Part shown: piece after piece, positions 5,049 to 61,400 of the stretch
How the letters are laid out: each line of letters begins with the position of its first letter
Position numbering within the stretch: position 1 is the first letter of the stretch
Assembly: GCA_044238365.1 (NCBI GenBank)
Contig: JBIIDM010000001.1
Span: 8,769-72,768, forward strand
Length of the DNA: 64,000 nucleotides
Reading direction: 5' to 3'
DNA from: Bdellovibrionota bacterium
GTDB lineage: Bacteria > Bdellovibrionota_C > UBA2361 > JBIIDM01
Position numbers and translations under genes: made by a program
The notes under the pieces: generated by a model
What the model saw: only the letters and a program-made list of their open reading frames with translations
What the model was told of the DNA's origin: nothing
The model's database searches: none

Positions 5049-6110
5049 CTAGTCTACTGACTCCTGGCGATCACCAAAAGATCTCTGAGCTAGGCCTACA
5101 GTCTGAGCAAACTGACTACACCGACTTATCAATTGGTCCTTATCCAATCCATCTGCAAAATTAACGCGGGTAAAGGGATCTAATATTGAAACATCACACC
5201 CCAGCTCTTCCCTCAACTTCTCAATCAAACCACCTAACAAACTAGTTCCTCCACTAAGTAAGACATTATCGATGCCCCCCTCAGCGCCCGAGGCATTCCA
5301 AAAATAACTCAGCTGCCTGCTAAGCTCCGAAACAGAATGTTCCACGAACTCTTCTACAATCAACGAAGCCTTTTCATCGGTGAGATTTAATTTTAATTTC
5401 TCCGCCTCTTCGATTGATATCTCCATCTCTTTTGAAATCTCCTCTGAAATAGTTTTTCCTCCGAGCGATATATCTCCTGCAAAAAGGCAATTTCCACCTC
5501 GGCAGATGTTGATTCCAGTGTATCTACCCCCTATATTGACCAGTGAAACTGTTTTTTCGACTAGAGAAGGATAGTTAAACTCAAAGCAGTTTTGCAAAGC
5601 AAACTGATCAACATCAACAATCCCGACGCTTAAACCTGCCTCATCAAATACTTCCACAAAGCGATCCACAACATCTTTCTTAACTGCAACTATCATAACT
5701 TCGTAATGATTCTTTCCTGCTTTGCCGATTACATGAAAATCAAGATAAACACTGTCTGCACCATGAGGAATAAAATTTGGAGCTTCAAATTCAATATGCT
5801 CACGCATTTCTTCTAGGTCCATGACCGGCAACCTCTGCTTCTTAGTGAATACACTAGGAGCAGGAACAGCTGTAACGATTTTCTTGTCCTGCAGGGTATA
5901 CTTCTGAGAAATTTCTCGGAGTAGATCGGCCACCTTTTCTACTCTCGAAATGGTGTTCTGTGCAAACACGTCAAAGCCATATTCAAAGTGACCAAAATTC
6001 ATAATAGTTAAAGAGTCATCTGCCCCCCTATCAACATCAAGCAGTTTTATCGCTGTTGCCCCAATATCGATGGCGATATATTTGTGCCTCTTTTCGAAAA
6101 AATTAATCAT
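5049..6110 (-). CDS. pilM: Type IV pilus assembly ATPase-fold protein PilM.
   Basis: 353 aa with an actin-like/FtsA-like fold signature (IAIDIGATAIKLL, GGGTS-like C-terminal motifs). It is the first gene of the pilMNO-Q cluster. Confidence 0.85.
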   Translation of the reverse strand: MINFFEKRHKYIAIDIGATAIKLLDVDRGADDSLTIMNFGHFEYGFDVFAQNTISRVEKVADLLREISQKYTLQDKKIVTAVPAPSVFTKKQRLPVMDLEEMREHIEFEAPNFIPHGADSVYLDFHVIGKAGKNHYEVMIVAVKKDVVDRFVEVFDEAGLSVGIVDVDQFALQNCFEFNYPSLVEKTVSLVNIGGRYTGINICRGGNCLFAGDISLGGKTISEEISKEMEISIEEAEKLKLNLTDEKASLIVEEFVEHSVSELSRQLSYFWNASGAEGGIDNVLLSGGTSLLGGLIEKLREELGCDVSILDPFTRVNFADGLDKDQLISRCSQFAQTVGLAQRSFGDRQESVD

Positions 6111-6486
6111 GGGGTAGCCTCGATTATATGCGTCCGTTTACTAGCCCGAATGAGGCCTGCTTCTATAGGATTCAGGGCACTATAGATCTGTCATGCTTTT
6201 TTAAACTTTAGACCTAAAAAGTACTAAAACAAACAGAGGTCAAAGAAATAAAAATACTCGATATGTTCAGCGTCTTGCCTAATTAGGCGTCTTTTTGTTA
6301 AGAATCAGGTATAACCCTCTCTAAGCCAACGAGCAAGCTAAGAATTGAGCGGTCCATTCAATCAAAAATGTAGCTAATAAGTAAGTTACCACGACTTTCA
6401 TCGCCTTGAACACGACAAAATGCTGAATTAGTGTATCATTTGCCTTCTGGAACATGCGCTAAGGCTGTTTACCACTTTCCCATCGG

Positions 6487-6569
6487 CTAACTTTGCAACC
6501 TAAGTTTCGGATAAGAAAAAAGGTAAGTGACTAAAGCAATTTTAGTCACTTACCTTTTTTCTTATCCGA
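6487..6569. repeat. Perfect 39-bp inverted repeat with a 5-nt loop (mini palindromic element). Its ends are related to the termini of the 180-bp MITE-like elements.
   Basis: The sequence aacctaagtttcggataagaaaaaaggtaagtgactaaa / gcaat / tttagtcacttaccttttttcttatccgaaacttaggtt was read directly. The arms resemble the element A/B terminus aacctgagttcgacgtaagaacaaaggtaa. Confidence 0.9.
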
Positions 6570-6688
6570 AACTTAGGTTGTCAGGTATTTTCCAGGTAGG
6601 GCGGCGTGTTAGAACACGTTTTGGAGCAGCTCAAATCTAAGGATGGCAATAATACAATTTTTTGGTGCTATATAGTGTCTACTCGATT

Positions 6689-8161
6689 CTAAGCCATTGA
6701 AGAGCGGGCTCGAAGGGCTGTTACCAGTTCTTGGGGAAGACCATCGAAGGAACCATTTGACATAAGGAGAACAATATCTCCCGTCCTTAGCTTAAGAAGA
6801 AGCGTTTTAATTATATCATCTACTGTAATGAGGGAGTACGCTTCCTTGCCGTGATTACGCAAGATTCCGGCTATCTCAGCCGTATTCAGGAGGTTCTCGA
6901 CCGAATCGTTATGTCGGGAAACCACTTCCTTTATAATGATTCCATCCGCAAACTTTAATGCTCGTTCGTATTCAGCCTGAAACACTCTGCGACGACTGGT
7001 ATTTGACCGCGGATCGAAAACAGCCCAGACCCTTGATTCCGGGTTGGCTGCCTTGACGCTTTTTAATGTTGCTGACACCGCTGAGGGATGATGGGCAAAA
7101 TCCTCAATTACCTGGACTTCCTGATCCTGATATAACATGGTAAGCCGTCGCTTTACGCCCTTAAAAGTTGAAATATGTCGAACAATATCCCCTAGGGGAA
7201 GTCCAATCGAAAGTAGGGAAACAATTCCTGCAGCAGCGTTAAGCGCATTATGAGAACCAATAAGCGGTATCCATACCGAAACCTCCTCTTTGGCTGCACC
7301 GGAGATGACGAAAGAAGTCCCAGCTTTATCTATTTTGATATTACCAATCCTCCAGTCGTTCGCAACCTCCTGACCATACGTTACCAGCCTTGCCGCGGAG
7401 CTCCTTCTCCATTTAGGTAAAAGAGACTTTATAGTTTCGTCATCCCCACACAATACGACCAAATCACCACTCGAGCGGCTGGACACCAAGCTGTCAAAGA
7501 CTTCAACAATGGCATTTAAATCCGAATAAATGTCAGCATGATCATATTCGATGGATGTTATAATCAGAATTCGTGGATCGTAAAAACTAAACTTTGGCAC
7601 CTTCGCAAAAAAGACCGAGTCGTACTCATCCCCTTCCAGCACTGTTTCACGTCCAGTACCGACACAAAGACTCCTATTCAGCCCCTCGATTTTAGCACCT
7701 ACGAAATAACCAGGTACACGATCTGCTTTCATTAAGATATGCGCAACAAGGGATGTTGTTGTTGATTTTCCGTGCGTCCCCGAAACAACAATCGGAAATC
7801 TCTCATTCACCAACAGATCGGCAAGGCAGGAGGGAAAACAAGTATAATTCAACTTCTGCATTTCTACATGCTGAACCTCTGGATTATCCGCACTTACCGA
7901 ATTTCCAATAATAACCAGCGATGCGTCGCCTGGAATATTATCTTTGTCGTAGTGATTAAATAGCGAAATGGCACTTTCCCGCAGAAGTGATGCCATGGGA
8001 TCATAAAATTCTTTATCACTCCCAGAAATCATAAATCCTAAATCTGCCAAGACCAAACCAAGTTGCCCCATCGCAACACCACAAATGCCGATGATATGAA
8101 TCTTTCCACCCTTGTTTACATTCTGAAGTTCCGTAACGCCACTAACACTAAAATAGACCAT
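6689..8161 (-). CDS. mpl: UDP-N-acetylmuramate:L-alanyl-gamma-D-glutamyl-meso-DAP ligase (murein peptide ligase, Mur ligase family).
   Basis: Mur-ligase N-terminus KIHIIGICGVAMGQLGLVLADLG is Mpl-like rather than MurC-like. A GTHGKSTT P-loop is present. The likely start is the internal Met (MVYFSV) at 8161, which removes the overlap with the upstream gene. The ORF track gives 6689..8197. Confidence 0.6.
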   Translation of the reverse strand: MVYFSVSGVTELQNVNKGGKIHIIGICGVAMGQLGLVLADLGFMISGSDKEFYDPMASLLRESAISLFNHYDKDNIPGDASLVIIGNSVSADNPEVQHVEMQKLNYTCFPSCLADLLVNERFPIVVSGTHGKSTTTSLVAHILMKADRVPGYFVGAKIEGLNRSLCVGTGRETVLEGDEYDSVFFAKVPKFSFYDPRILIITSIEYDHADIYSDLNAIVEVFDSLVSSRSSGDLVVLCGDDETIKSLLPKWRRSSAARLVTYGQEVANDWRIGNIKIDKAGTSFVISGAAKEEVSVWIPLIGSHNALNAAAGIVSLLSIGLPLGDIVRHISTFKGVKRRLTMLYQDQEVQVIEDFAHHPSAVSATLKSVKAANPESRVWAVFDPRSNTSRRRVFQAEYERALKFADGIIIKEVVSRHNDSVENLLNTAEIAGILRNHGKEAYSLITVDDIIKTLLLKLRTGDIVLLMSNGSFDGLPQELVTALRARSSMA

Positions 8162-8162
8162 A

Positions 8163-8816
8163 CTATTCCCCAATAAATTTCTCGTATAACTGCGCATATT
8201 CGATGTCTAACGCGTCATATCTTCGTTTCAGTTGAAAATAATGATCATTTCCCTTCGCTATCTGCGCTAACAGATCACCTATTTGCTCCTGTGAGTAAAG
8301 TAGTTCTTCTTGCATATCGTTTAGAAGCCGCGTTTGATCTTCTGTCATGGCTACCTCACTTCTAAGTTTCTCCAAGATACTCAGAGACTCATTAATCTGG
8401 TCCTTTAACGCTTCGTTGCGGAGCCTTAGCTCTTCCTCCCGGCCTTTAAGAATGTTAAGCTCTCCCTTGCTCTCGACTTCGCTGGCATCAAGTTCTCGTT
8501 CTGTTTCATCAAGCTCTCGCAGCCTCAGCTCAACGGATTCAAGTTCAACTTTTGCTATTGCAGCCCTACCTCTCTCCGCCTGTATAATATCTCCATGCTC
8601 GACAATCGACGAAACAACTACTTTCATCTCGTCAAATGGTACCAGATGCCCCTTAAATAACTCTATTCGGTCTATTACACCTTTACGTTCGACTAATATA
8701 TCACTTAAGCGTTGAAACTGATGACCCTGAGCATCCACCTTTCTCTTTGCAAAAAACCAGAAGATCCCAACAAGGAGTAGCGTTTCCACTAGTGCACATA
8801 TCAATATTAGAATCAT
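8163..8816 (-). CDS. Hypothetical membrane-anchored coiled-coil protein.
   Basis: 217 aa with an N-terminal TM segment (LICALVETLLLVGIFWFF) and a long heptad-rich E/L/R region. No recognisable enzymatic motif. Confidence 0.45.
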   Translation of the reverse strand: MILILICALVETLLLVGIFWFFAKRKVDAQGHQFQRLSDILVERKGVIDRIELFKGHLVPFDEMKVVVSSIVEHGDIIQAERGRAAIAKVELESVELRLRELDETERELDASEVESKGELNILKGREEELRLRNEALKDQINESLSILEKLRSEVAMTEDQTRLLNDMQEELLYSQEQIGDLLAQIAKGNDHYFQLKRRYDALDIEYAQLYEKFIGE

Positions 8817-8832
8817 AGGACATGTATTTAAT

Positions 8833-9008
8833 AACCTGAGTTCAACGTAAGAACAAAGGTAACTGGTTGAAATTGCTTTACAAACGAGGTGAGAGTGATA
8901 TCAAAGCGCAGGCTGAAGCTTGTTACGTCGAGCATTTTATATCATGAGCAACGAAGTGGATGAAGTAATTTCATCCATTTACCTCAGTTCTTACGTCTAA
9001 CTCAGGTT
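8833..9008. mobile_element. MITE-like palindromic repeat element, copy A (~176 bp, non-coding).
   Basis: Terminal inverted repeats aacctgagttcaacgtaagaac ... gttcttacgtctaactcaggtt enclose an internal imperfect palindrome. It is about 90% identical to copy B at 18979-19160. It is intergenic, between the coiled-coil gene start and the VWA gene end. Confidence 0.8.
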
Positions 9009-11149: not shown

Positions 11150-11447
11150 GAGCTAACATCACTTAAACTCCTGAAAAATCTAACAGCATTACTTAAATGG
11201 CATTCAGAGAAGATCCCCCTGTTACTCCCATGATACCTCCAGTGACAGAACGCAAACGCAACAACGCATATAACTATTTGAAATTAATTAAGATAAAAAG
11301 CCCAAACATAAAGGCACCAATGTGGCTCCCCACATGGAGCATTTCAGATTCGTAGCACCGAAGTCGATAGAATGATTCGATCATATAGGACCATTCTTCC
11401 GCAATATAAAGGTCGGTAGTAAGATTCTAATTAGAATAGTATAAATC

Positions 11448-18978: not shown

Positions 18979-19160
18979 AGCCTGAGTTCGACGTAAGAAC
19001 AAAGGTAAATGGTTGAAATTGCTTTAGAAACGAGGCGTGCAGTGATATAAAAGCGCAGGCTGAGAAGCTTGCTACGTCGAGCATTTTATATCATGAGCAA
19101 CGAAGTGGATGAAGTAATTTTAACCATTTACCGCACAGTTCTTACGTCGAACTCAAGTTA
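18979..19160. mobile_element. MITE-like palindromic repeat element, copy B (~182 bp). It is inserted between the ABC ATPase and permease genes of one operon.
   Basis: The ends are cctgagttcgacgtaagaac ... gttcttacgtcgaactcaagtt. The internal sequence aligns to copy A over its full length. The element abuts the ATPase stop codon. Confidence 0.8.
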
Positions 19161-19934
19161 TTAGCTGGCTCCGTGCTTAGTCTCGCCACCATTCGAGGAT
19201 GGAATTGCGTCATCATTTTCGATGGGTTTATCGTAGCTAACACACTCAAGAAACAGTTGCTCAAGAGTTCGATCTCTTGTTATTTCTGCGAGTTTTCCCT
19301 CCCGTACAATCGTTCCCCTATTAATAATAACAACCTTGCTGCAGACCATGGTAACTTCTGGAAGGATATGGGTACTCAACAATAAAGTCTTTTCTTTGCC
19401 CAGGTCCTTGATCAGGTTTCTAATATCTATGATTTGACGCGGATCTAACCCACTCGTAGGCTCATCCAGAATCACCACTTGAGGATCGTGAACTATTGCC
19501 TGTGCAAGGCCAACCCTCTGCCGATACCCCTTGGAAAGCTGACCACAAAGGCGCCGAAACACATCCTTGAGAAAACAACGCTCGGCTGCTTTCTCAACAC
19601 TTTCCTTTAAATTTTTGCTCGCTACTCCTTTAATCCGTGCTACAAAATACAGGTACTCCTCCACTGACATCTCCTCATACAAAGGGGGATTTTCCGGAAG
19701 ATACCCGATTACCCGCCTTACCTGGTCAGCTTCTTTTTTTATGTCAAATCCGGCTATTTTTGCCGTTCCAGATGAAGGCGGCAAAAAAGTAGACAACATT
19801 CGAATGGTAGACGTCTTTCCGGCACCGTTTGGACCGAGAAACCCGACTATCTCACCTCGTTCAGCAGTAAAACTAACTTGATTTACGGCCTTATATTCTC
19901 CGTATGCTTTAGAAAGTTTATGTACCTCGATCAT
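19161..19934 (-). CDS. ABC transporter ATP-binding protein (GldA-like).
   Basis: Walker A GPNGAGKTS, ABC signature LSKGYRQRV and Walker B ILDEPTSGLD are all present. Confidence 0.9.
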   Translation of the reverse strand: MIEVHKLSKAYGEYKAVNQVSFTAERGEIVGFLGPNGAGKTSTIRMLSTFLPPSSGTAKIAGFDIKKEADQVRRVIGYLPENPPLYEEMSVEEYLYFVARIKGVASKNLKESVEKAAERCFLKDVFRRLCGQLSKGYRQRVGLAQAIVHDPQVVILDEPTSGLDPRQIIDIRNLIKDLGKEKTLLLSTHILPEVTMVCSKVVIINRGTIVREGKLAEITRDRTLEQLFLECVSYDKPIENDDAIPSSNGGETKHGAS

Positions 19935-22690: not shown

Positions 22691-22814
22691 CTCTTTGTTA
22701 CTCAAAAGAAGACTTATAGATTCCTAGTAACTCTACTCAGGTGCCCTCAACATAAATGCGCCCCAAAAGCGAGCTAACCAGCTGTAACTGCCAGTGATTT
22801 TTCAAGGTCGGGGA

Positions 22815-22912
22815 AAGTGATTGTTTTGTGAATGAGGCGTGGTACTCCAGGTCGCAGTGAACAAAATCAATCACTGGACGAAGAGATTGGGAAAATACCT
22901 GAGCAGTTACCT
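22815..22912. repeat. Degenerate or chimeric repeat fragment (copy D) sharing modules with element C.
   Basis: gaggcgtggtactccaggtcgcagtga (22834-22860) matches 36276-36303 in about 25 of 28 positions. It also shares gacgaagagat and a cctgag..cagttaccttt end-like segment. A local 14-bp inverted repeat flanks the shared module. Confidence 0.6.
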
Positions 22913-23785: not shown

Positions 23786-23949
23786 CTTAAAAAAATTTAA
23801 AACACAACGTTCAAACCCAGACGATACGCAAAAAGGGCCTTAAGTGACTCTGATTACCTCCTCTCTTCTCATATTATAAGTTGCTCGACCTAGCATGCTA
23901 TGCCGCGCTAATCTCATTAACGCCTGGTGTCTAAAGTAATTCTATCCCG

Positions 23950-23976
23950 TTACCTTTGTTCTTATCCGAAACTCAG
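23950..23976. repeat. Solo terminal-repeat remnant of the mini-palindrome subfamily.
   Basis: ttacctttgttcttatccgaaactcag closely matches the right arm of the 6487-6569 element (ttaccttttttcttatccgaaacttagg). No partner arm is visible nearby. Confidence 0.55.
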
Positions 23977-33270: not shown

Positions 33271-33326
33271 GTGTTATAAAGTCAGTCACTAATTCTGTTT
33301 TAACTAACCCGAATTTTTCGTCCTAA

Positions 33327-33491
33327 AAAGAGCAGCCTTGCGGTTTAAAGCGGCTCCATATATTTGAAATTACAAAGAATTTAGTGATTTTTGGTGACAA
33401 TCAAATATCACCGATACGATGAGATCCAAAATCGCTAAATTCTTTGTAATTTCAGCTAGATGGGCCACTTCAAACCGCAAGGCTGCTCTTT
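33327..33491. mobile_element. Second, unrelated palindromic repeat-like element (~165 bp).
   Basis: The ends are aaagagcagccttgcggtttaaag ... ccacttcaaaccgcaaggctgctcttt, a perfect 19-bp core inverted repeat. The internal sequence ttgaaattacaaagaatttagtgatttt pairs with aaaatcgctaaattctttgtaatttcag. It lies in the divergent promoter region between the membrane protein and the Wzc-like gene. Confidence 0.75.
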
Positions 33492-33863
33492 CTAGACTCA
33501 TGGAAGGAACCACCGCCAGTAGTTACCATACTTCGTGAATTCAGATTACAAGTAAAGAGGGTAGTTACGAAACGCTCAGAATGCATCGGACCCTGACTAC
33601 CGGTCTGGATCGAACAAACCACAGAACTCGCCGATTCCCGTCAAAAAAATTAGTTAAGAAACGCTGAAAAACGCACCGTCTTGCAACACTATCCGGTAAG
33701 CGAATTTCGTAACGAAATCCAGTGATAACACGCTGATATTAATATAACTTTCGAGCCTTAAAACATACTGTTCATTTTTTTAACCCCTTATTATTGGTTA
33801 AGTTACCATAATACGGTAAAAAGTAGAGGCGTCTATATTTAAACTTTTGAGGCCACAATCAAC

Positions 33864-36167
33864 GTGTCGAACAAACATCCAATTCCATATGGCTTTACCC
33901 CTGTTCGGTCATCCGACAGTTCGGACGCCCGGTTGCATAATCAGCTTGTAATACCACCCCATAGGGGCCAACAATTTCCGGTGTACGACGACGCTCTTGA
34001 AGAAGAGAAGACCTTAGCCGATTACCTCGCTATCCTCAAAAAATACGTCAAGTTTCTGGTCGTTTCAACGCTTGTATCAGTGTTCGCCGCGGCAATATAC
34101 GTTCTAGTGACCACCCGTGAATATTCTGCGACAGCAACCCTTCAGATTGATACCTACCTTCCAACGCTTGTGGGCGTCGCTCGGGAAGACGTACTCCGTC
34201 AGCAAACATCAGAAGAAAACTATATATCAAACCAGGTTGCGGCTCTTAGAGGCTACCCTCTTGCGGATCGGGTACTCTCCAAGGAGGACGTGATGAAGGA
34301 ATTCCGGGAACTATATCCCAAAGATGCCAAAGAGGTTGTTCCTGATCCAGACTCTCCATATAAACACTCTGCATCGGATCTGGAAAAATACGTCAAGCTT
34401 TTAAGTATATACCCAATAAGCGACACCTCGCTTGTTAGAATTTCTACGATTACAAAGGCGCCCAAGTTTGCAGCACTATTGGCAAACACTCACGCAAAGG
34501 AATTCATCGAAATGACGAAAAGTTTCCGTCTGAGTGATGATGTTCATAACGTGGAGTTTCTCGGTCAACAAGCCGACGAACTTGAAAAGAAACTCCTCGC
34601 GTCAGAGCAAGGGCTATCAAGATATGCGGAGGCAAACGATATCATCGCATTTGAAAACGGAGATTCGGTCGAGGTCGGTAGACTAAACGGGGCCCATCAA
34701 GCTCATGAAGCTGCGAAAGCCCGGCGTATAGAAGTCGAAAGCAGATATAAAGAGGCTGAAAAGTCGCTCAAAACCGGTACAACGCTAGTCGACGATGCAG
34801 CAATTACCTCCATTCGCCAACAGCTATCCCAATCCCAAGCTGAGTACGCTGAACTGAGCCAGCGATTTAATCCTAGATATCCGAAAATGATAGAGATCCA
34901 GAACAAGATTAGGTCATTAAAGGGTCAGATAGAAATGCAACGGAAAGGGGCACTTCGAACACTGAAGGGTCAGCTGGATGCAGCACTGGCGACGGAGAAA
35001 GATCTGAAGACCGAACTGCAATCCCAAGAAACAAAAGCGTACAGAATTGCTAATGCACTGGTAGAATATAATCGCCTCAAGCGAGAACGAGACTCTCTAA
35101 AGGCATTGCAACAGAACGTTGAAACCCAGCTCCAACAAACCCGCTTTAGTGTAGACAATGCCAATAAAGGCAATATCTATCTGACCGAACCAGCCGTTGT
35201 TCCTGATTCTCCAAGTAAACCTAAAGTGAGCGTAACGCTCCTGTTAGCACTTATTTGCGGACCGATAGTTGGTGCTGCACTGGCGTTCTTGTACGAATCT
35301 TTCGACCAAACGCTAAAAGGTCCGGAAGAATTAGAGAAGGTCCTGCGAACTCCCGGCCTTGGAATCATTCCGCACTACACATTTGACGTTGCTGACTTAG
35401 CGGTGGGTGCCGACGATAACCTACCAGCCCTTGCTACCTTAAACCTTGTATCGATCAGGGAGCCGTTTTCATTAGCAAGCGAAGGATTTAGGACAATCAG
35501 AGCCGGAATTCGCCTATCCTCAGCTGATAAGCCGGTTGAAGTAATCGTGGTAACAAGCAGCGACCAGGGTGAAGGGAAGTCCACATTGGTTGCTAACCTA
35601 GGAGTCGTCTGTGCACAGGATGACGCTAAAACTATCCTGATTGATGCAGACCTGAGAAGGGCAACACTTCATAACTGTTTCGGAATTAGTCATGAAGAGG
35701 CTGGTTTGACCGAGATTCTTACAGGTCAAATGTCGCTTGAAGAATGTATTCAAAAAACTGCTGTAGAAAAATTGGATGTCCTTCCTGCTGGAGGCGCAGT
35801 GCCGAATCCTGCCGAGCTAGTAGGATCAAGAAAGATGAGAGACCTGATTAACTCGCTCCGCGAACAATACGATTATATTATAATCGATACGCCGCCGGTC
35901 GCCCCTGTCGCCGACTCCCTTGTTCTTTCTCCTCTTGCTGACGGTGTGATAATGGTGGTTCGCTCGAAGAAGACCATTAGAAAGGAAGCAAGGAAAACCC
36001 TCTATAAACTAAGGGAGTCCGGATCGAGAATTCTCGGAGTTGTTCTGAACGATGTTGAACCATCAAGAACCCTCATCAAAAGTGACTACCTTATAAAAAG
36101 CAAGCCCCGAGCACGATTCGGCAATCCGAACTGGGAGGAACCAGGAAAAAGCGACAAGGCAGCCTGA
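33864..36167 (+). CDS. Polysaccharide co-polymerase with C-terminal tyrosine autokinase domain (Wzc/GumC-like).
   Basis: Two TM segments flank a long coiled-coil periplasmic domain. The C-terminal Walker A VTSSDQGEGKSTLVANLG and DTPPV motif are present. The C-terminus has only two tyrosines rather than a Tyr-rich tail. Confidence 0.8.
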   Translation: MSNKHPIPYGFTPVRSSDSSDARLHNQLVIPPHRGQQFPVYDDALEEEKTLADYLAILKKYVKFLVVSTLVSVFAAAIYVLVTTREYSATATLQIDTYLPTLVGVAREDVLRQQTSEENYISNQVAALRGYPLADRVLSKEDVMKEFRELYPKDAKEVVPDPDSPYKHSASDLEKYVKLLSIYPISDTSLVRISTITKAPKFAALLANTHAKEFIEMTKSFRLSDDVHNVEFLGQQADELEKKLLASEQGLSRYAEANDIIAFENGDSVEVGRLNGAHQAHEAAKARRIEVESRYKEAEKSLKTGTTLVDDAAITSIRQQLSQSQAEYAELSQRFNPRYPKMIEIQNKIRSLKGQIEMQRKGALRTLKGQLDAALATEKDLKTELQSQETKAYRIANALVEYNRLKRERDSLKALQQNVETQLQQTRFSVDNANKGNIYLTEPAVVPDSPSKPKVSVTLLLALICGPIVGAALAFLYESFDQTLKGPEELEKVLRTPGLGIIPHYTFDVADLAVGADDNLPALATLNLVSIREPFSLASEGFRTIRAGIRLSSADKPVEVIVVTSSDQGEGKSTLVANLGVVCAQDDAKTILIDADLRRATLHNCFGISHEEAGLTEILTGQMSLEECIQKTAVEKLDVLPAGGAVPNPAELVGSRKMRDLINSLREQYDYIIIDTPPVAPVADSLVLSPLADGVIMVVRSKKTIRKEARKTLYKLRESGSRILGVVLNDVEPSRTLIKSDYLIKSKPRARFGNPNWEEPGKSDKAA

Positions 36168-36194: not shown

Positions 36195-36350
36195 AACCTG
36201 AGTTCGACGTAAGAACTGCGGTTGCTAGGGTTCGCGAGGTTGGTTGATGTCGAGGCAAGAGGTACTTTCAGGAACGAGACGTGGTACTCCACGTCGCAGT
36301 GACGGAGAGTACCTCTTAACGAAGAGATCAGCCAACCTCGCGAACCCTAG
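36195..36350. repeat. Chimeric repeat element, copy C. It has an A/B-type left terminus plus a different palindromic module.
   Basis: It starts aacctgagttcgacgtaagaac (identical to the B terminus). It then continues with ctagggttcgcgaggttgg ... ccaacctcgcgaaccctag and an inner hairpin gaggtac..gacgtggtactccacgtcgcagtga..gtacctc. No right A/B terminus is present. It abuts the manC stop. Confidence 0.7.
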
Positions 36351-37790
36351 CTAAACGCGGCCGTAGACGTCAGTAAAACGGACGATATCATCCTCACCTA
36401 AGTAGCTTCCTGTCTGCACCTCAATCAGCTCGAGAGGAATCAAACCCGGATTCTTGAGATAGTGCTTGGTTCCTAAGGGGATATACGTCGAGCGGTCCTC
36501 ACCCAGCAAGATCTCCTCATCGCCCCGTCCCACTACCGCGGTGCCTTTTACAACGACCCAATGCTCAGCTCGATGGTGGTGCATCTGAATGGAGAGCTGC
36601 TGGCCCGGATGTACGGTGATTCTTTTTACCTGGAAGCGATCCTCTAGAGCTATCGTCTCATAGCTCCCCCAAGGTCGGTAGACCTTCTTATGAAACTGAT
36701 ATTCTTGGCGTCCCTGAGCCTGCAGGTGGGTTACTATCTTTTTTACCTCCTCCACTCGGTCCTTTGCAGCTATCAAAATCGCATCTGATGTCTCAACTAT
36801 CACTTGGTCGGATATGCCGAGTGCCGCAATCAAGCGTCCTTCTGAGTGGATAAAGCAACCGTGAACATCCTCTACAATTACATCACCGAGGGTTACATTG
36901 TCTGATGAATCTTTGGGTTGAATCTCCCACAGGCTTGACCACGATCCAACATCACTCCAACCAGCCTTGAGAGGAATAGTCACCGCTTTGCTCGTCTTTT
37001 CCATTACCGCGTAATCGATAGAATTCGAGGGGCTGGAATTAAAAGCATCCTCTTCAAGACGAACAAAATCCAGGTCGACCCTTCTATTTTCATAGGCAGC
37101 CTCACAAGCTTTAAGTATCGCTGGTTCAAATTGTCCAAGTTCAGATAAAAAGTTCGCTGCTCCGAATAAGAACATTCCACTATTCCAGAAGTAGTCCCCG
37201 GACTTAACGTACTCCTCCGCCACCTTTAGATTCGGCTTTTCAACAAATCGCGCTATTGGTAGCCAGGAGCCCTTTCCGGCTTCTCCCTTAACTACCTGAA
37301 TATACCCGTAACCCGTATGAGCAGCTTCCGGAACCACACCGAACGTTACCAGCTTACCGATATTAGCAGCTTCAATCCCAGACCTTACAGCCTGATGAAA
37401 AGCACCGACATCCTTGATCACATGATCAGCTGGAAGTATCAACAACAATGCCCCTGAGCCATATCTATGAATACTGTCGAGAGCGGCAACTGCTATCGCC
37501 GGTGCCGTATTCCTGGGTGAAGGCTCCAGGATAATGGTTCCTTTCCCTAAAAGACCCTTTTGCTGAAGTTCTGAAGCAACTATAAAACGATGCTCTGAAT
37601 TAGAGATTATTACCGGTGGTTGAATTTCTTCGCCAATTATATTGTTTCCCTTAACCAGCACCCGATCAATTGTTGCCCCTAAGAGGGAATCATCTCCGAT
37701 GAGTGACAAAAACTGCTTAGGAAACGCCGCCCGAGAAAGAGGCCATAAACGACTTCCCGATCCCCCGGACAAAATCACTGGAACAATCAT
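36351..37790 (-). CDS. manC: Mannose-1-phosphate guanylyltransferase / mannose-6-phosphate isomerase (bifunctional).
   Basis: The N-terminal segment is PVILSGGSGSRLWPLSR. A C-terminal cupin domain is present (HHRAEHWVVVKGTA). Confidence 0.85.
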   Translation of the reverse strand: MIVPVILSGGSGSRLWPLSRAAFPKQFLSLIGDDSLLGATIDRVLVKGNNIIGEEIQPPVIISNSEHRFIVASELQQKGLLGKGTIILEPSPRNTAPAIAVAALDSIHRYGSGALLLILPADHVIKDVGAFHQAVRSGIEAANIGKLVTFGVVPEAAHTGYGYIQVVKGEAGKGSWLPIARFVEKPNLKVAEEYVKSGDYFWNSGMFLFGAANFLSELGQFEPAILKACEAAYENRRVDLDFVRLEEDAFNSSPSNSIDYAVMEKTSKAVTIPLKAGWSDVGSWSSLWEIQPKDSSDNVTLGDVIVEDVHGCFIHSEGRLIAALGISDQVIVETSDAILIAAKDRVEEVKKIVTHLQAQGRQEYQFHKKVYRPWGSYETIALEDRFQVKRITVHPGQQLSIQMHHHRAEHWVVVKGTAVVGRGDEEILLGEDRSTYIPLGTKHYLKNPGLIPLELIEVQTGSYLGEDDIVRFTDVYGRV

Positions 37791-49137: not shown

Positions 49138-50199
49138 TTATAAAAACAAAACATCAAAACCTTCGTTCTGTATACTATCGGCCAGTTCCAGGTTGGTCGA
49201 GGTAACAAATACCTGCCATCCTGTAGCCCTTATTACGCGAAGTAAGGACCTTCTACGTTTTTCATCAAGTTCAGAATCAACATCATCAAGAATAAGAACA
49301 GGGGTCTGATGAAGGGAATTAGATAGGTTTTGGGCCGTTGCTACCGTGAGCGCCAATGTTGCAGCCCTTATTTGCCCCTGCGATCCGAACTCCTTAATAG
49401 GCCTCCCACCCATCAGGATCTCCATATCATCAAGGTGGATGCCGATTTGAGGACGTCTGAACCGAAGCTCTTTCTGCAACTGTCTCTCTAATGTGCTGAA
49501 AGCCTCCTGCTCAGATCGAACTACACCAAAGGTTGTCACGTATCTTATTTTGAGATCAACTCCCTCGCCGAATAGCTCTTGAAACACCACCGAAAAATTT
49601 GCATTAAGCTTATCGATTACTTCGTATCGACGCTGAATTATCTCCCAAGCTGATTTTGCAAGTAACTCGTTCCACGTTCTAATATCTGAAGGATTTGCGC
49701 CTTGTTTAAGCAGCGTTCTCTTATGGGCAAGTGTTCGACCATAAAAATTGTACAGCTCTATTAAAGGTGGATTAAGTTCAATAATATGTTTATCAACGAG
49801 CCCCCTCCGTACGACTGCCCCTCCCTTTACGACTCCCAGACTATCAGGGGAAAAACCTATCACCAGAAAACTGCCCACAAAATCCTTGATCTTGGTAATT
49901 AACTTACCATCCCGAGATATCTGCCGTCGCCCGGACTCGACCGTTACTGACAAATTAAAAGAACCAATATCATCGGAACAAAGACCCGAAACTATAGCTG
50001 CAGAGTTTTCATGTTTAATAAGTGCCCGAAGCTTTGAACGCTTCAATGAAACTCCTGTCCCTAACAGATAAATCGCCTCTACCAGATTCGTTTTTCCTCT
50101 ACCATTTTGAGATAGAATAAAATTCAGGCCCCCTCCAAATGAAAATGAGTTTTCCGCAAAGTTCCTAAAATTCTGTAAATACAATGATCGTATCTGCAA
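49138..50199 (-). CDS. recF: DNA replication and repair protein RecF.
   Basis: The Walker A is GQNGRGKTNLVEAIY. It sits in the conserved position between dnaN and gyrB. Confidence 0.9.
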   Translation of the reverse strand: MQIRSLYLQNFRNFAENSFSFGGGLNFILSQNGRGKTNLVEAIYLLGTGVSLKRSKLRALIKHENSAAIVSGLCSDDIGSFNLSVTVESGRRQISRDGKLITKIKDFVGSFLVIGFSPDSLGVVKGGAVVRRGLVDKHIIELNPPLIELYNFYGRTLAHKRTLLKQGANPSDIRTWNELLAKSAWEIIQRRYEVIDKLNANFSVVFQELFGEGVDLKIRYVTTFGVVRSEQEAFSTLERQLQKELRFRRPQIGIHLDDMEILMGGRPIKEFGSQGQIRAATLALTVATAQNLSNSLHQTPVLILDDVDSELDEKRRRSLLRVIRATGWQVFVTSTNLELADSIQNEGFDVLFL

Positions 50200-50214
50200 A
50201 ATCTTCCCCTTCGA

Positions 50215-51324
50215 TTACTCAATTCTTATCGGCATTACCATGGCTATTGAGTGTTCATCATCGCAAGGGTAGAATCTGGCTGGCTCATTTCCATTCAATA
50301 TTTCAATAACGATCTTTTCTGATATCAAAAACGAGCTAACAACATCTATAAGGAACCGAGCATTGAAACCAACACTGATTGGTTCATCGGTACCAACAAT
50401 GACCAACCGTTCTTCACTCTCTCCAAGCTCTGGACTACGGCTTGATATTCGCATGCTATCCTCTGCGATGTCGACCCTTACCCCCTGCCCCTGAGAGGCA
50501 AGGATAAGCGAAACACGGCGCAATGCGTCAGAGAACTCCTGGACCAGGATTTCAATCTTGACTCCTGAGGACTTGGGAAAAGCCCGAGCATAATCGGGAT
50601 AATCAACATCCATAAGACGAAGCGCAAACTTTGAGGAATCACTCTTAAAAACGACAAACCCCCCTCCGAATCCAACTTCAACCTCTTTAAGATGACCATC
50701 GTCAAAAACTCTACGTAGTTCAGAAAGGCCTCTTTTAGGGAAAAGCACCCTATGCCCAAGCCGCAAATCGGGGATATCTCTAGTTGAAAGCGCAAATCTA
50801 TGTCCGTCAGTGGCAACCATAGTTACCCTTCCATCGGAAGTCGGTTCAAAACAAATACCACTCAAATTAAACTTAGCCTCATCATGAGAAGCCGCATAGA
50901 TAGTTCTGTTGATCATTTCAGCAAAAATACGGCAATCGATCTTCCGATCTGTCACCAGGTCTAATCCCGGAATTTTTGGAAACTCAAGAGCGCCCAGCAC
51001 ATTCAATTTATATTTGGTGGTATTAGATTTAATTTCAAGCTTTTTTGCGTCCGAGAGTGAAAGATTCATCAAGCCTGTCGGCAGCTGGCGAACAACATCG
51101 GCAAACATCTTTCCGGGGACTGAAAATGTAGCTGATTGCTTTACTTCGGCAGGTACTTGCATAGAAACAGAAACTTCCAGATCCGTCCCCGACACTTCTA
51201 TTTGCCCATTATCTATCCGCACTAAAAAATAAGACATAATCACAAGAGGAGATTTTTTGCCTATAAATGCCTGGAGTGTATTCAAGGCCTTCGACAAATC
51301 ATCCTGCTGAACGACACACGACAT
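50215..51324 (-). CDS. dnaN: DNA polymerase III beta sliding clamp.
   Basis: 369 aa with a three-domain beta-clamp pattern. It lies directly downstream of dnaA. Confidence 0.9.
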   Translation of the reverse strand: MSCVVQQDDLSKALNTLQAFIGKKSPLVIMSYFLVRIDNGQIEVSGTDLEVSVSMQVPAEVKQSATFSVPGKMFADVVRQLPTGLMNLSLSDAKKLEIKSNTTKYKLNVLGALEFPKIPGLDLVTDRKIDCRIFAEMINRTIYAASHDEAKFNLSGICFEPTSDGRVTMVATDGHRFALSTRDIPDLRLGHRVLFPKRGLSELRRVFDDGHLKEVEVGFGGGFVVFKSDSSKFALRLMDVDYPDYARAFPKSSGVKIEILVQEFSDALRRVSLILASQGQGVRVDIAEDSMRISSRSPELGESEERLVIVGTDEPISVGFNARFLIDVVSSFLISEKIVIEILNGNEPARFYPCDDEHSIAMVMPIRIE

Positions 51325-51637
51325 AAAAGACTCCTATATCTAGATTAAATATATATATTCATAGTAGTAGTAGTAGTTAGGTGTGGTTTCTGTTGATAGA
51401 CTGCCTAACTAATTGAAACAGTAGAACTTCCCAGGCTCGGTTGTTGTGGTTTTTAGCTTGGCGTATTCCCGGGTTATGCCCACAAAAGCATTTTGTGGAC
51501 TATCTAGATATAGATAGTCCACAGGTAGTGCGTAGGTTTTCCACAGGAATTACCGGAAAAAACATAAAAAAATCAACAAGATGGCTCCGTTGATAACAAA
51601 ACCACCGCTTGCGACAATCTAAAATCAGAAACATTCT
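51325..51637. promoter_or_regulatory. Candidate oriC in the dnaA-dnaN intergenic region.
   Basis: DnaA-box-like 9-mers were read directly: TTTTCCACA at 51537-51545, and the inverted pair TGTGGACTA (51494-51502) / TAGTCCACA (51515-51523) around a TCTAGA core. An AT-rich stretch taaatatatatattcatagtagtagtagtag (51345-51376) could act as an unwinding element. Gene orientation and plus-strand G+T richness switch around this locus. Confidence 0.55.
51362..51376. repeat. (TAG)5 trinucleotide microsatellite within the candidate origin.
   Basis: tagtagtagtagtag was read directly. Confidence 0.9.
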
Positions 51638-53194
51638 CTAGCTGAAAAGTTTCCTTTCTATTTCGGAGACAAGTTCTCTCACAGAAGCCTCGTCGCTGAC
51701 CTTGTTTGCGACGACACTCGCGGCGTGGATTACGCTGGAGTGGTCTCGTCCGCCAAATTTTTCGCCAATCTCGGGGTAGGAAGCTGTTGTATGTTTCCTG
51801 CAGAGGTACATGGCTACATGTCGAGGAAACGAGAGATTTTTTGTCCGTCGTTTAGATATTATTTCTGACACTTTGATTGAGAAGTGTTGTGCTACCGCCT
51901 TCTTGATGTCCTCTATGTTGACTGATATTTTTTTCGGTTCTAGTAGGGGTTTGAGGGCCACTTGGGCCATTTGCAGCGTAATTGGAACCTTCTGCAGGCT
52001 GCTAACGGCATGCAATCTGGTTAGTGCTCCCTCTAATTCCCTAACGTTTGAGGAGATATTCTCGGCTATAAGGTATGCAACGTCCTCGGGAAGGTGAAAG
52101 TTCTCAAGGAGAGCTTTGCGTTTAAGAATTGCAGCTCTAGTCTCAAAATCTGGCGCTTGCAGATCCGCCGTTAAGCCCCAGGCAAAGCGGGTCTGAAGCC
52201 GCTCTTCAATTCCATCAATTTCGGAAGGAATTTTGTCAGAAGTCATTACGATCTGACGCTTGCAACTATAAAGGGCGTTAAACGTGTGGAAGAACTCTTC
52301 CTGGGTTCTTTCCTTTCCGCTTATGAACTGAATGTCGTCAATAAGGAGTATCTCAATGCTTCGTAGCCTTGTCTTGAATTCCTCCATTTTTGCGTTCCGA
52401 AGCGCCTGAATGAGCTCATTCGTAAAGGCCTCAGAAGAAATATAAAGCACTTTCGAGTTGGGGTTTCGGCTGAGAGCGGCATTTCCAATCGAGTGTAGAA
52501 GGTGTGTTTTGCCAAGCCCTACGCCGCCGTAGATAAATAGAGGGTTGTAGCTTTCACCTGGTTGTTCAGCGACTCTACAGGCAGCGGCGTTACAGAATTG
52601 ATTGTTGCTTCCAACTACAAAGCTTTGAAAGGTGTATTTGGGGTTTAGGTTGTTGAAAGTGTGGTGATCGTTTGGCGTACTGGTAGATTCGACGGGCTCG
52701 GCGGTGGGACTGGCGTGGCGTCGTTTTATAACGGTTCGAGATGATCCATCAAGTTGGCTTGCTAGTAGCGATTCATTTGGTGCCTTTGGTTCCTGAACAA
52801 CGTACGTGAGAATCAAGTTGGGAACGTTAAGCAATTCCTTAAGAAGCGTTTCTATTCGCCGGGAGTAGTTTCGCTCTATAAGTTGGCACTGAAGTTTTGT
52901 CGGCGCAGAGATTGTTAGGGCTGTTTCGTCAAATTCCCTTACGTCACCTTCTGTAAGTTCAACGATTAGCGGTTCGAAGTATGCGGAAAAGGCATGTTGA
53001 CCTACTTCGGTCTTAATCACCTCCAACATGTCATTCCATGCGTTTACTACTAATCCTTCGTGAATGGGTTCTCGGACAAAAGGTACGCCGTTTTGAAGTT
53101 GGTTGTAGGTGGTGTTCTCTCTAGTTGTGTTTTTGGTTGTGTCACTAGTAGTTGACTGGGTTGTTGATAAAAATAAATCTGGCGCAATATTCAT
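51638..53194 (-). CDS. dnaA: Chromosomal replication initiator DnaA.
   Basis: The AAA+ Walker A is GGVGLGKTHLLHSIG. The C-terminal DNA-binding domain carries GGRDHSSVIHA. The N-terminus has a T/N-rich low-complexity ~50-aa extension before domain I. Confidence 0.95.
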   Translation of the reverse strand: MNIAPDLFLSTTQSTTSDTTKNTTRENTTYNQLQNGVPFVREPIHEGLVVNAWNDMLEVIKTEVGQHAFSAYFEPLIVELTEGDVREFDETALTISAPTKLQCQLIERNYSRRIETLLKELLNVPNLILTYVVQEPKAPNESLLASQLDGSSRTVIKRRHASPTAEPVESTSTPNDHHTFNNLNPKYTFQSFVVGSNNQFCNAAACRVAEQPGESYNPLFIYGGVGLGKTHLLHSIGNAALSRNPNSKVLYISSEAFTNELIQALRNAKMEEFKTRLRSIEILLIDDIQFISGKERTQEEFFHTFNALYSCKRQIVMTSDKIPSEIDGIEERLQTRFAWGLTADLQAPDFETRAAILKRKALLENFHLPEDVAYLIAENISSNVRELEGALTRLHAVSSLQKVPITLQMAQVALKPLLEPKKISVNIEDIKKAVAQHFSIKVSEIISKRRTKNLSFPRHVAMYLCRKHTTASYPEIGEKFGGRDHSSVIHAASVVANKVSDEASVRELVSEIERKLFS

Positions 53195-53614
53195 CTAGAA
53201 ACCAAAAAAAGACGAAAAAGAGAGCATCGGTTCAGTTAGATAGGACTAGTGGAGAGTAGCGAAACCTTAGCAATTTACAACAGTAATATCTAGATAAAAT
53301 CTAGACTAGCGGCTTTAATCTAGTAATATTATAAGGTTGGTTGGTTATTTTTTTTTCTTAGTAAAAGTTAGATAAACTAGATAACGTTTTTCGTTGGCCT
53401 GGAGTGGCTGTGGCAGGGGCGGGGCTTGGGCTTTGATGGGCATTTTAGATGGGGGTGAAATCTAATCGGAGGCTGTGCGGGTTTTGTTCAAGAGGAGCGA
53501 CTCCCGCGTGTGGGTTGATATTAGATATGGCCAAACGCGAATGCGTGGGCCAGCTATTAGGAGTCCCTTCGTGTGTTCTAATTTCAAGGGTCTAGCCCGC
53601 TCCCGTGAGTCTTT

Positions 53615-58496: not shown

Positions 58497-61400
58497 TTAG
58501 GCTGCGTCTTCGAGTTGAAGAGAGGGAACTTCTGAGATAATCGAAGATATCTTTTGTAAGTTTATTAGAACTCCGTCATCTGGTTTTATCGTTAAGCGTT
58601 CCGATATCAGGAGGTTAAGACGCTCCTGAAAGCCTTCCAGCTCCTGGAGTGTCGTATTTATTGAAGCTGCCATTCTAGTGCTTGTGGGTACGCTGTCTGC
58701 CAAATTCTGGATTTTTCGATATTGCGGTTTTAGATATTTATCCCTAAGTGTTTTTAAGACAAAAGGTGTAAACAAGTGTCCGTAAGTGAGAGCTTTAAAA
58801 GATTGCTTTGGTCCACTACACAACTCCCAGTAGATAGGCCGCTTTCCGTACGTCTTTGCGTGTTCCTTAAAAAAATCCTTGAAGAAATAGTTTCGTAAGA
58901 TATTTTCGGCATCCTCGACCTGCGATGTATAACCCGCGCTGAAGAGTCGTTGGGAAAGGTAGTTTAGATTTTTATTTAGGTTTTTTTTGCCATAAGTAAG
59001 GCCAAGGAACACCTTAAATAACTCATACAAATCTCGTGAGGAATCAGAATCAGCATCTTTCGAAAGTAGGACCAGAGAATCCTTCGGACTGCAAGGGTGA
59101 GCTCCAGGCGAATCCTGAATGCCAACCATGTCGAGCTTATATCTACCTAGAATAACCCCAACACCATAGGAGATTAGTCGCTTGACGCAGTCAACTTCTG
59201 ACCAGACCGGGTACGTCGAGGTGCTTCCTTCTGACTCAGACTCCTTTGGTTCAGGTAGTCCAAAGGCTTGTGTGAATATTAGATTGTTCTTGTTTTCGAT
59301 TGATTCAAGCTTCGTTCGTTGGGATTTTCGCATTTCCAGAAAGCTTCTGATGGAATCTTCCAGAGAGATGCTCTTTTCTTTCGGAATAAAGGGCAGCCTT
59401 AGGAATGTCCAGTTTTCTTCGTGGTGCGACATCTCCTCTTTCATTATCTCAACGGCCCGCTCGAAAAGGGGTTTCAGCTTTGGTTGCAATGGCTCTAGGC
59501 CTTTTGCTGGCACCGGTAGGGATGAGATATTTCCCGTCTGGAAATGAAGAGTAGGATTTATCGCTTTTATAAATTTTTCGGCTACCTTACTGCAAAGGTA
59601 GCAGCAGACCGCCTCGAAAACGTCATCCGATGGAAAGATCCCCGATCCGGAAATATCACTGATAAACCCGTAAGGGAGGTATCGTGCTCCAAAGTGACTC
59701 GAACTTACATCCGACCAGGTAACGCATCTTCTAAATTGAAATGCAGGATCACCCAGAGTTCCCTTTGAAGTCTTCCGTAGAGTATGCAAAAATTCAGATA
59801 TTTCTTGGCCGTCATTTTCAAAGTTGATTACATAATGGTGGTTGCCATACCATTGACGGTATTTTCCTCCTTTGTTGTAGGGGAACCATTTTTTACCCGA
59901 TAGGGCAGCTTCTTTTCGAGAAGTACACTCAAAGGCGATCGATTCTTGTGATACTTCAAACCACCGTCGTATAAAGCGCGCATTATTTGAGGTCTGTATC
60001 CCCACGCGTGTAGGATATTTATCACCCAAAAGCGAGTTTTCCCTAAAGGCATCAAAGGCCGCATCTTCGAGCCAGAATGATAGGGGCTTTTCCGGGAGCG
60101 CGTTAAAGTCTTTGTTCGAGCGGAAGTATAGCCAACCACATTCCGGATAGGTAATTGCTTCAATTACTTTGGGTGATTGTACGTCTCTTCCCTTAAAAGG
60201 TTCCAGATTGATGAACACCCCTTTAAAATCTTCAATTCGCTTTTTCTGTAGAGTGAAGGTGCAAATAGGGACGGTAGCGCCATCAAATGCTGAGTACTGA
60301 AGCTTTATAAGTGATGTTATTGTTGTGTTATTTAATACAAAGTCTCTAAGGTTGCGGTACGAAGTGATGAACATCCAAACAAATGGACTCATAAACCCAA
60401 TATGCCCATCATCCTTTGTAAGTTGCCAGTTTCTGATAATAAAAGCAGAGAACATATCTCGGCTGTAAGCCGCATAGTTCGCGTTTAGGTAGCTTCTTAA
60501 ATCATCGGGATAGTATTTCGAACTTAGGTAGGGTGGGTTTGCAAGGACGCAGTCGTATTGAGAGCACAATAGCAGGGCTCGAAGTACCAGTTGCATTAGA
60601 GCGAGAGCATGTTTTCGGGCCGAGGCGTCTTTGGTAGCTATTACGTGATTTAGGAAGTGCACAGCCGTTGTTAGCAATATTTGTTCATGTGCGGGTACAA
60701 TAGTAAGGGACCCCAGTGATGATGCATTTGAAAAATAAGCAGCAAACCGGATAAAGTCATCTTTGCTGATAGACTCAACTATCTGCCCGTTCTCAACACA
60801 GCTGGGGACTCCATAGCGGGTTTTGCCTTTAAATCGACTTACCGTTTCGCTATCTTTTGGGAGGATTTCAGTACAGGCTGCGTTGATCTGAGCTTTGTCG
60901 ACACTCTCTAGCGAGTAAATGTGAGGCACCGGAGTGTCAAAACCATTCAAAATCTTCGGATTGTCTATTCGGGCTCGCATTAGTAAGGCAAAGCTGGCCA
61001 TTTGGGCAGCTCGCTCATCGATATCAAGACCATAGAGGTTTGAATTTAAGATTTTACCCGCGATTTCGGATGGTGAATAGCCCATTTCAAGATACATATC
61101 TTTTAGTGTATCAAAGGCTTCTACAAGAATATGACCTGAACCGCAGGCTGGGTCAAGGATTGTAAGGTTTTCGGGGTTAAGGGGATCTAATTGAGATTTT
61201 GTCCCTTTGGAGCGCTTACTCGTTAGATTTTGCTCGGAAAATTCCGGCATAAGATATTCCCAACGGCTCTTAAGGACCGGTGACCGGTGTGAGCCTAGCC
61301 AGGTTTTTCCGAGGGTGTTCTGGACAAGATAGCGGACAATCCAGCGGGGAGTAAACAGCTGGGTGGCAGCCGGAATATCGCCGGGTTCGAGTTTTTTTCC

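Follow-up and report, generated by a model that had tools for sequence, protein, structure and literature searches.

What is the long inverted repeat that separates an mpl-like Mur ligase gene from pilM, how did it get there, and does it affect the genes on either side? The stretch of DNA in which these questions arise, referred to here as the window, was analysed at its full length of 64 kb. A repeat search places the palindrome, called H in the following, at positions 6496-6580, where 85 bp form a perfect structure with arms at 6496-6535 and 6541-6580 and a loop at 6536-6540. The arms are 40 nt each and complementary at 40/40 positions around a 5-nt spacer, with zero differences over 80 nt. 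The initial annotation had reported a perfect inverted repeat of 83 bp, and the repeat is indeed present: the 39-nt arm that it quoted, starting with AACC, occurs exactly twice (once per strand, 0 mismatches) at 6497-6535 and 6541-6579. The 83-bp feature therefore corresponds to 6497-6579, the interval 6487-6569 originally given for it lying about 10 nt too far to the left. The same annotation considered such a repeat very unlikely by chance, and the arm does not appear in any of 100 shuffles. Folding energies are in line with this. As RNA, H reaches -67 kcal/mol when the minus strand is folded (z -14.2) and -70.2 for the plus strand (z -13.7), so that the free-energy calculation proposed at the outset returns -67 to -70 kcal/mol with z about -14. 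The DNA fold of the 85-mer has an energy of -43.9 (z -17.5), and no shuffle folds equally well.

H might be a chimeric product of assembly or amplification, and three contigs (L001, L002, L006) stop inside or at it. However, the identical 85 bp are found with the same unique flanks, distinct on each side, in the window and in two independent assemblies from different studies (L003 from ENA and L004 from JGI), which indicates that H is no assembly artefact, and breaks at a perfect palindrome are what de Bruijn assemblers are expected to produce. An artefact thus has a negligible probability, and the palindrome itself accounts for the assembly breaks upstream of pilM in the source organism.

The genes around H are all encoded on the minus strand, where the order is the mpl-like gene (8197 to 6689), H (6580 to 6496), pilM (6110 to 5049), pilN, pilO and pilQ. 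The repeat had been located between the mpl-like stop codon and the region upstream of pilM, and this is where it lies. The features of the interval are as follows.

6689-8197, minus strand: mpl-like Mur ligase gene; on the sense strand, H follows 108 nt after its stop codon.
6516-6560, both strands: core of H, made of A6 (6516-6521), a 14-bp stem GGTAAGTGACTAAA (6522-6535), the loop GCAAT, the other strand of the stem (6541-6554) and T6 (6555-6560).
6383-6410, minus strand: promoter-like block TTCAAG, 16 nt, TGgTAACTT, between H and pilM, conserved in L031, L034, L038 and L077.
5049-6110, minus strand: pilM, first gene of pilMNOQ, whose ATG is 385 nt downstream of H.

The promoter-like block belongs to a conserved part of the spacer (window 6426-6374) in which TTCAAG, 16 nt and TGnTAnnnT are present in 5/5 genomes (the window and the four relatives just named). 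Read by eye, the motif in 6374-6426 resembles an extended -10 promoter and is a putative promoter for pilMNOQ; a consensus promoter scan gave no call there. Just ahead of the pilM start is a second conserved block (GGCTAGTAAACGGACGCATATAAT, 6123-6146). Neither block includes H, which is located 85 nt upstream of the putative -35.

The palindrome has relatives within the window. Together with them it belongs to a previously undescribed MITE-like family of about 175 bp, five pieces of which are present in the 64 kb, namely H and the following four copies.

8833-9008, plus strand: copy A, full-length at 176 bp, with the VWA gene on one side and a 217-aa ORF on the other.
18979-19159, plus strand: copy B, full length, 181 bp, with the target duplication ATT, within an apparent ABC-transporter operon.
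23826-23976, minus strand: copy C, decayed and nearly full length (HMM positions 4-163, E 3e-17), with a terminus that matches the H arm at 27/30 positions.
36195-36222, minus strand: copy D, a solo right end, 28/28 to the consensus right end, abutting an unrelated palindromic element at 36224-36351.

A solo copy of the arm had been noted at 23950-23976. The sequence exists and matches the H arm at 27/30 positions, but it is not solo, being the end of copy C, which extends over about 150 nt. A search for further copies, also proposed in the initial annotation, adds to the five in the window 24 loci in JGI metagenomes that carry the exact 27-nt terminus (degenerate terminus pattern), most of them from two samples. 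One of these two main sources, Ga0169931, also contains a relative with 83% PilM identity (L039). Relatives with 83-84% PilM identity carry a family copy (L032) or a truncated one (L038/L039), and family copies are found in at least three related organisms. The degenerate terminus pattern, which H itself matches, has 0 matches among GTDB species genomes, so that the family is in no representative genome, and none of the PilM-relative loci from GTDB (identity of 44% or less) carries it. BLAST of the family consensus against plasmids gave no match, two pattern scans of viral contigs gave 0 matches to the family termini, and Rfam gave 0 matches at gathering thresholds over the whole window. Plant miRNA-precursor models that appeared below threshold in a permissive Rfam scan of the spacer were rejected because such models fit any long hairpin. 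The literature searched held nothing relevant linking MITEs with Bdellovibrio or its phylum.

Some smaller observations concern individual copies. On one side of copy B is the ATPase stop codon TAA (19161-19163), which overlaps the duplicated ATT, and on the other, at 18951, is the ATG with which the permease gene probably starts; the TTG start listed for the permease at 19002 lies within copy B and is probably wrong. Two weak matches to the family HMM (E about 0.01) were also seen. One is in L079, a contig from the same organism, roughly 1.1 kb past the end of the window, where a decayed right-end remnant (6141-6186 of that contig) overlaps the gidA stop codon. The other, at 11278-11399 of the window between the VWA and PPIase genes, may be what is left of an element interior.

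In size, terminal inverted repeats, target duplications, copy number and intergenic location, the family behaves as a bacterial MITE, and the element family postulated in the initial annotation is accordingly multi-copy, bounded by terminal inverted repeats and target-duplicating. The alignment of 14 full-length copies has a mean column identity of 89%. Full copies measure 175-181 bp and are non-coding, none being spanned by an ORF. The terminal 22-nt inverted repeats are nearly invariant, with 94% of cells paired, and complementarity continues to about 53 nt. Perfect direct repeats of 3 bp border 10 of the 14 full copies (CAT four times, AAT, ATT, TTT, TTA, AAA, TAC and GAC), and a mini-copy (L015) has one as well. 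Among 20 copies examined, none is inside an open frame of at least 100 aa and all are intergenic. Insertions are in some cases nested in, or cut off by, other repeat families, as for copy D in the window and for the copies in L007 and L038.

The position of H within this family can be read from its alignments. Positions 2-53 of the family HMM align with the minus strand of H, from 6578 to 6527 (E 1.4e-4), and the BLAST match has an E value of 8e-9. Over 53 nt, H is 80% identical to the consensus left end, 70% to the consensus right end and 83% to copy C, and over the terminal 30 nt it matches copy C at 27/30 positions. Ungapped, it matches both the left end of copy A and the family consensus at 23/30. 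A relationship with the termini of copies A and B had been claimed at the outset, with identity below 60% named as evidence against it; values of 80% over 53 nt and 23/30 ungapped uphold the claim. Both arms carry the signature of left ends, AAA before GGTAA, in place of which right ends have TGC, TGA or TGTGC. Moreover, the apex of H, GTGACTAAA-ATTGC-TTTAGTCAC, aligns with a subterminal stem-loop at positions 31-53, ATGGTTGAAA-TTGC-TTTAGCCAC, that is present in every left end. The loop of H and its immediate flanks agree with that stem-loop at 13/14 positions, in that orientation only (counted by eye from the alignment). Judged from its sequence, H on the minus strand is therefore the left end, positions 1-53, followed by an exact inverted copy of positions 1-30.

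Two features of the family are missing in H, a target duplication of its own and distinct left and right ends. Indeed, H has TGC on one side and GTC on the other, and no direct repeat is found at any offset. True derivatives in which a left and a right end are joined by deletion occur elsewhere in the family, one of 55 bp with the target duplication CTT (L015) and one of 91 bp (L011). Copy C and L013 (90% over 31 nt) have terminus variants resembling H, and the A6 variant of the terminus is also present in ordinary copies (L008, L013). A second palindrome of the H type was not found in the 64-kb window, in the extra contigs L079 and L080 (about 10 kb in all) or in a metagenome scan with a pattern that fits H.

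The age of H at this site was approached through relatives. The best PilM matches among 185,579 GTDB species genomes reach at most 44% identity and belong to Bdellovibrionales, Bdellovibrionota and Oligoflexia MAGs, and closer relatives (80-87% and 61%) are found on metagenome contigs only. The host is no cyanobacterium. The gene order PPIase, VWA, 217-aa ORF, mpl and pilMNOQ is kept in relatives, and the spacer between mpl and pilM varies as follows.

L077, PilM identity 80%: spacer of 162 nt.
L035, PilM identity 61%: spacer of 474 nt.
The window, PilM identity 100%: spacer of 578 nt.
L031, PilM identity 84%: spacer of 649 nt.
L038, PilM identity 83%: spacer of 791 nt.
L034, PilM identity 83%: spacer of 1029 nt.

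H is absent from this spacer in 5/5 syntenic relatives (L031, L034, L035, L038, L077). The contigs of the closest relative (L036/L037, PilM identity 87%) cover 335 nt upstream of pilM and stop short of the H position. The long spacers of relatives are taken up by MITE-like repeats of another family, whose ends resemble CCCGGATTATTCACGAG and of which L034 has two copies; repeats of this type are in L031 (5351-6000), L034 (4971-6000), L036 (1-335) and L038 (1154-1945), and the window has no copy of such an end within 3 mismatches. In L038/L039, a 5'-truncated copy of the family of H lies 75 nt before the pilM ATG. The range of 162-1029 nt, together with the presence of several MITE families, makes the mpl-pilM spacer an insertion hot spot. 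Alignment of the relatives' spacers is confined to the two short conserved blocks, a divergence too great for an exact empty site to be defined, and a search for a conspecific empty allele gave none. On these comparisons, H is a lineage-specific addition to the mpl-pilM spacer.

How one transposon end became a perfect palindrome can be considered on the basis of this anatomy. The explanation that we favour, and hold to be fairly probable, is that H is an immobile fold-back relic of a small non-autonomous MITE-like transposon that has spread in an uncultured Bdellovibrionota-like clade, with a snap-back origin and a terminator function that we infer. The combination of a left end with its perfect mirror copy and no target duplication points to a snap-back or template-switch origin. 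In particular, DNA synthesis would have been accompanied by a fold-back of a left-end fragment at its subterminal hairpin, after which the nascent strand would have copied itself by snap-back or by a quasi-palindrome template switch. Such self-copying would have made a perfect 40-bp palindrome out of a 9-bp hairpin and replaced the rest of the element. Quasi-palindrome template switching and snap-back synthesis have been described in E. coli and phage T4. There, as proposed for H, a short or imperfect hairpin becomes a longer, perfect palindrome when the nascent strand copies itself, and a switch of this sort would explain the identical arms, the apex that corresponds to a pre-existing hairpin and the loss of adjacent sequence. 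The classical cases correct a few bases, whereas about 30 nt would have been mirrored in H by a process deduced from its anatomy. An intermediate, that is, a left-end fragment at the site of H, was not found.

The zero differences over the 80 nt of the arms and the missing 3-bp repeat, taken together, fit neither a recent nor an old ordinary insertion, and this bears on the two explanations that do without self-copying. The initial annotation had described H as essentially two termini fused. On this reading, H would be a plain internal-deletion derivative with a left and a right end, and its arms would later have become identical through gene conversion inside the hairpin or selection for perfect pairing. 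The derivatives of 55 and 91 bp show that the family does produce such forms, and a full-length relative with an H-like terminus (copy C) is present in the window. However, both arms of H are left-type (80% versus 70%) and 100% identical, neither has a signature specific to right ends, the apex is the native subterminal loop of the left end, and the 3-bp duplication is missing, whereas the verified derivative L015 keeps one. A further homogenisation step would also still be required. The description as fused termini is hence not retained, and we regard an origin of this kind as unlikely. It is equally unlikely that H is an ordinarily transposed copy from an actively mobile subfamily whose master is a short perfect palindrome. 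The H-like termini of copy C and L013 do indicate that an H-like subfamily exists, and the survey of the host genome covers about 75 kb; yet a recent insertion, as zero mutations in 80 nt would imply, should keep the 3-bp repeat that H lacks, and the 64 kb, the two extra contigs and the metagenome scan contain no second palindrome of this type.

A broader possibility is suggested by the structure of the family as a whole. The consensus of the entire element forms a hairpin of 70 pairs in which 94.4% of cells are paired, compared with 31-37% in controls with slid partners. Compensatory changes of both partners are found at 13 pairs, a number that 0/500 shuffles reach; all are in the subterminal and interior helices and none in the terminal 22 nt, which are conserved in sequence. 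Most of this covariation reflects one subfamily split, that of three Ga0114940 copies (L009, L014, L028), and therefore stands for few independent events. Wobble cells, 74 G.T against 18 A.C on the strand in which the consensus is written, may hint that one strand is the folded one; the counts are themselves biased, as the structure was predicted on that same strand and they trace to few ancestral positions. The family might accordingly be a structure-dependent element that moves or acts as a folded single strand, DNA or RNA, in which case hairpin-primed synthesis would have left H as a by-product, since used by the host as a bidirectional terminator or insulator and as an RNase III site before pilMNOQ. 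We consider this whole chain improbable. As for a partner enzyme, a Pfam search found no transposase among the 42 window ORFs of at least 150 aa. Next to L021 and L024, two odd copies that share a left flank and diverge in their interiors, are genes for a glycosyltransferase-like protein and for a membrane protein and no transposase gene, and no autonomous element with the family ends was found in the window, plasmids, viral contigs or GTDB genomes.

Whether the fold-back relic has any effect on transcription depends on its core. An intrinsic terminator consists of a stem-loop followed by a U-tract, and an upstream A-tract is typical of the bidirectional ones. The core of H reads the same on both strands, its nested 14-bp stem and T6 being read directly from the sequence; the hairpin has an energy of -18.7 kcal/mol on either strand and is followed by U6CUU on both, and its stem is AT-rich (5 G-C pairs of 14, 36% GC). 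This core looks like a bidirectional intrinsic terminator, a structurally plausible assignment from which a function may be deduced. Mirroring of an A-rich stretch of the terminus would be enough to create the series of A6, 14-bp stem, 5-nt loop, stem and T6, and since full-length copies of the family are without a T-tract, the terminator-like property is new to H. A generic terminator scan did not call H, because it followed the stem outward (up to 20 pairs) past the T-run, beyond which there is none. No other terminator-like site was detected by the terminator scan on the sense strand between mpl and pilM.

RNA polymerase coming from mpl would thus transcribe the 14-bp hairpin and then U6, while any RNA that reads through would form a perfect 40-bp duplex, long enough to be a substrate of RNase III. 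In this way, H would uncouple the transcription of mpl from the pilMNOQ promoter 85 nt downstream, and its likely effect would be to insulate that promoter from mpl read-through. Such an effect would be incidental and not ancestral, given that relatives do without H. The same relatives, the AT-rich stem and the position of copy B inside an operon without obvious harm argue against a selected role, and the full-length copy B in that operon implies that elements of the family are not necessarily blocks to transcription. An inert H, whose terminator-like core would be a by-product of the mirrored A-rich stretch and would leave transcription unaffected, is a serious possibility, if not the one to which we incline. 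It agrees with the absence of H in all relatives examined, with the A6 variant already present in two ordinary copies, with the negative generic scan and with a spacer that collects several MITE families in the clade. Against it, a 14-bp hairpin of -18.7 kcal/mol followed by U6 has what intrinsic termination usually requires in structure, and it is the sole structure of this sort between mpl and pilM.

Like the family described here, bacterial MITEs such as Correia/CREE of Neisseria, RUP, ERIC and Nezha are short, non-coding, multi-copy and intergenic, with terminal inverted repeats, target duplications and long hairpins. The target duplication of Correia elements is TA, in contrast to the 3 bp of the family of H, which further differs from known MITEs in its unrelated sequence, without an Rfam family at threshold, and in its uncultured Bdellovibrionota-like host clade. 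H itself differs from them in having no target duplication and in being a perfect palindrome made from one end only. Bacterial MITEs are often co-transcribed with neighbouring genes, and the hairpins of Correia elements are cut by RNase III (PMC10969869). SPRITE repeats are dispersed and combine a hairpin with a U-tract, resembling an intrinsic terminator (PMC10969869, PMC3049150). That shape belongs to the whole SPRITE family, whereas here only the mirrored derivative has it, and sequences and hosts are unrelated. Bidirectional intrinsic terminators have in common with H the symmetry of A-tract, stem-loop and T-tract and a location after a stop codon; the stem of H, however, extends to 40 bp and is AT-rich, and no convergent plus-strand gene needs termination. 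The literature searched held nothing relevant on a MITE acting as a bidirectional terminator. REP/BIME sequences, mobilised by RAYT, are, like H, extragenic palindromes able to stabilise or terminate transcripts. REP units carry a conserved 5' tetranucleotide and are imperfect palindromes, 20-40 nt long and without target duplications, and membership in this class was rejected as the family unit measures 175 bp and has terminal inverted repeats and 3-bp target duplications.

What is new is a MITE-like family, unrecorded until now, from a Bdellovibrionota-like clade that has hardly been sampled, and the recognition of the mpl-pilM spacer as a hot spot for several families. H is a clean natural example of the conversion of one transposon end into a perfect 85-bp palindrome, and, if the terminator reading is true, of mobile-element debris that makes a ready-made bidirectional terminator in one step. 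Current concepts are unchanged, similar roles being known for Correia, SPRITE and REP elements. H is otherwise an ordinary kind of genomic relic, and both a perfect palindrome made from the left end only and the creation of a terminator-like module in one step are neat and unsurprising to a specialist.

Other repeats were seen in the window. Two copies of another palindromic repeat family, at 22784-22910 (ends GTAACTGC...GCAGTTAC) and at 36224-36351 (28-nt arms), are 78% alike over 54 nt (22807-22860 versus 36249-36302); the latter truncates copy D, and a relative of these repeats adjoins the truncated family copy in L007. A third palindromic element of about 173 bp (33323-33495) is composed of nested repeats, with 32-nt arms that are 91% and 36-nt arms that are 89% complementary, and is upstream of a Wzz/tyrosine-kinase-like gene (33864-36167).

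The window as a whole is core chromosome, with gyrA, cox genes and dnaA-dnaN-recF-gyrB. The last cluster occupies about 50000-53600 (dnaA at 51638-53194), with an AT-rich stretch at 51330-51377, and the cumulative GC skew has its minimum near 50-52 kb of the window, so that this region is probably the chromosomal replication origin. A tRNA/tmRNA search of the window found none. Seven tandem units of 15 nt each (GGCGCGCCACCACCA-like; 165-305), located just past the pilQ 3' end, are very GC-rich compared with the rest of the window. Finally, a 1191-aa ORF at 58497-62072 has Eco57I/MmeI-type methyltransferase domains and resembles a Type IIG restriction-modification enzyme.
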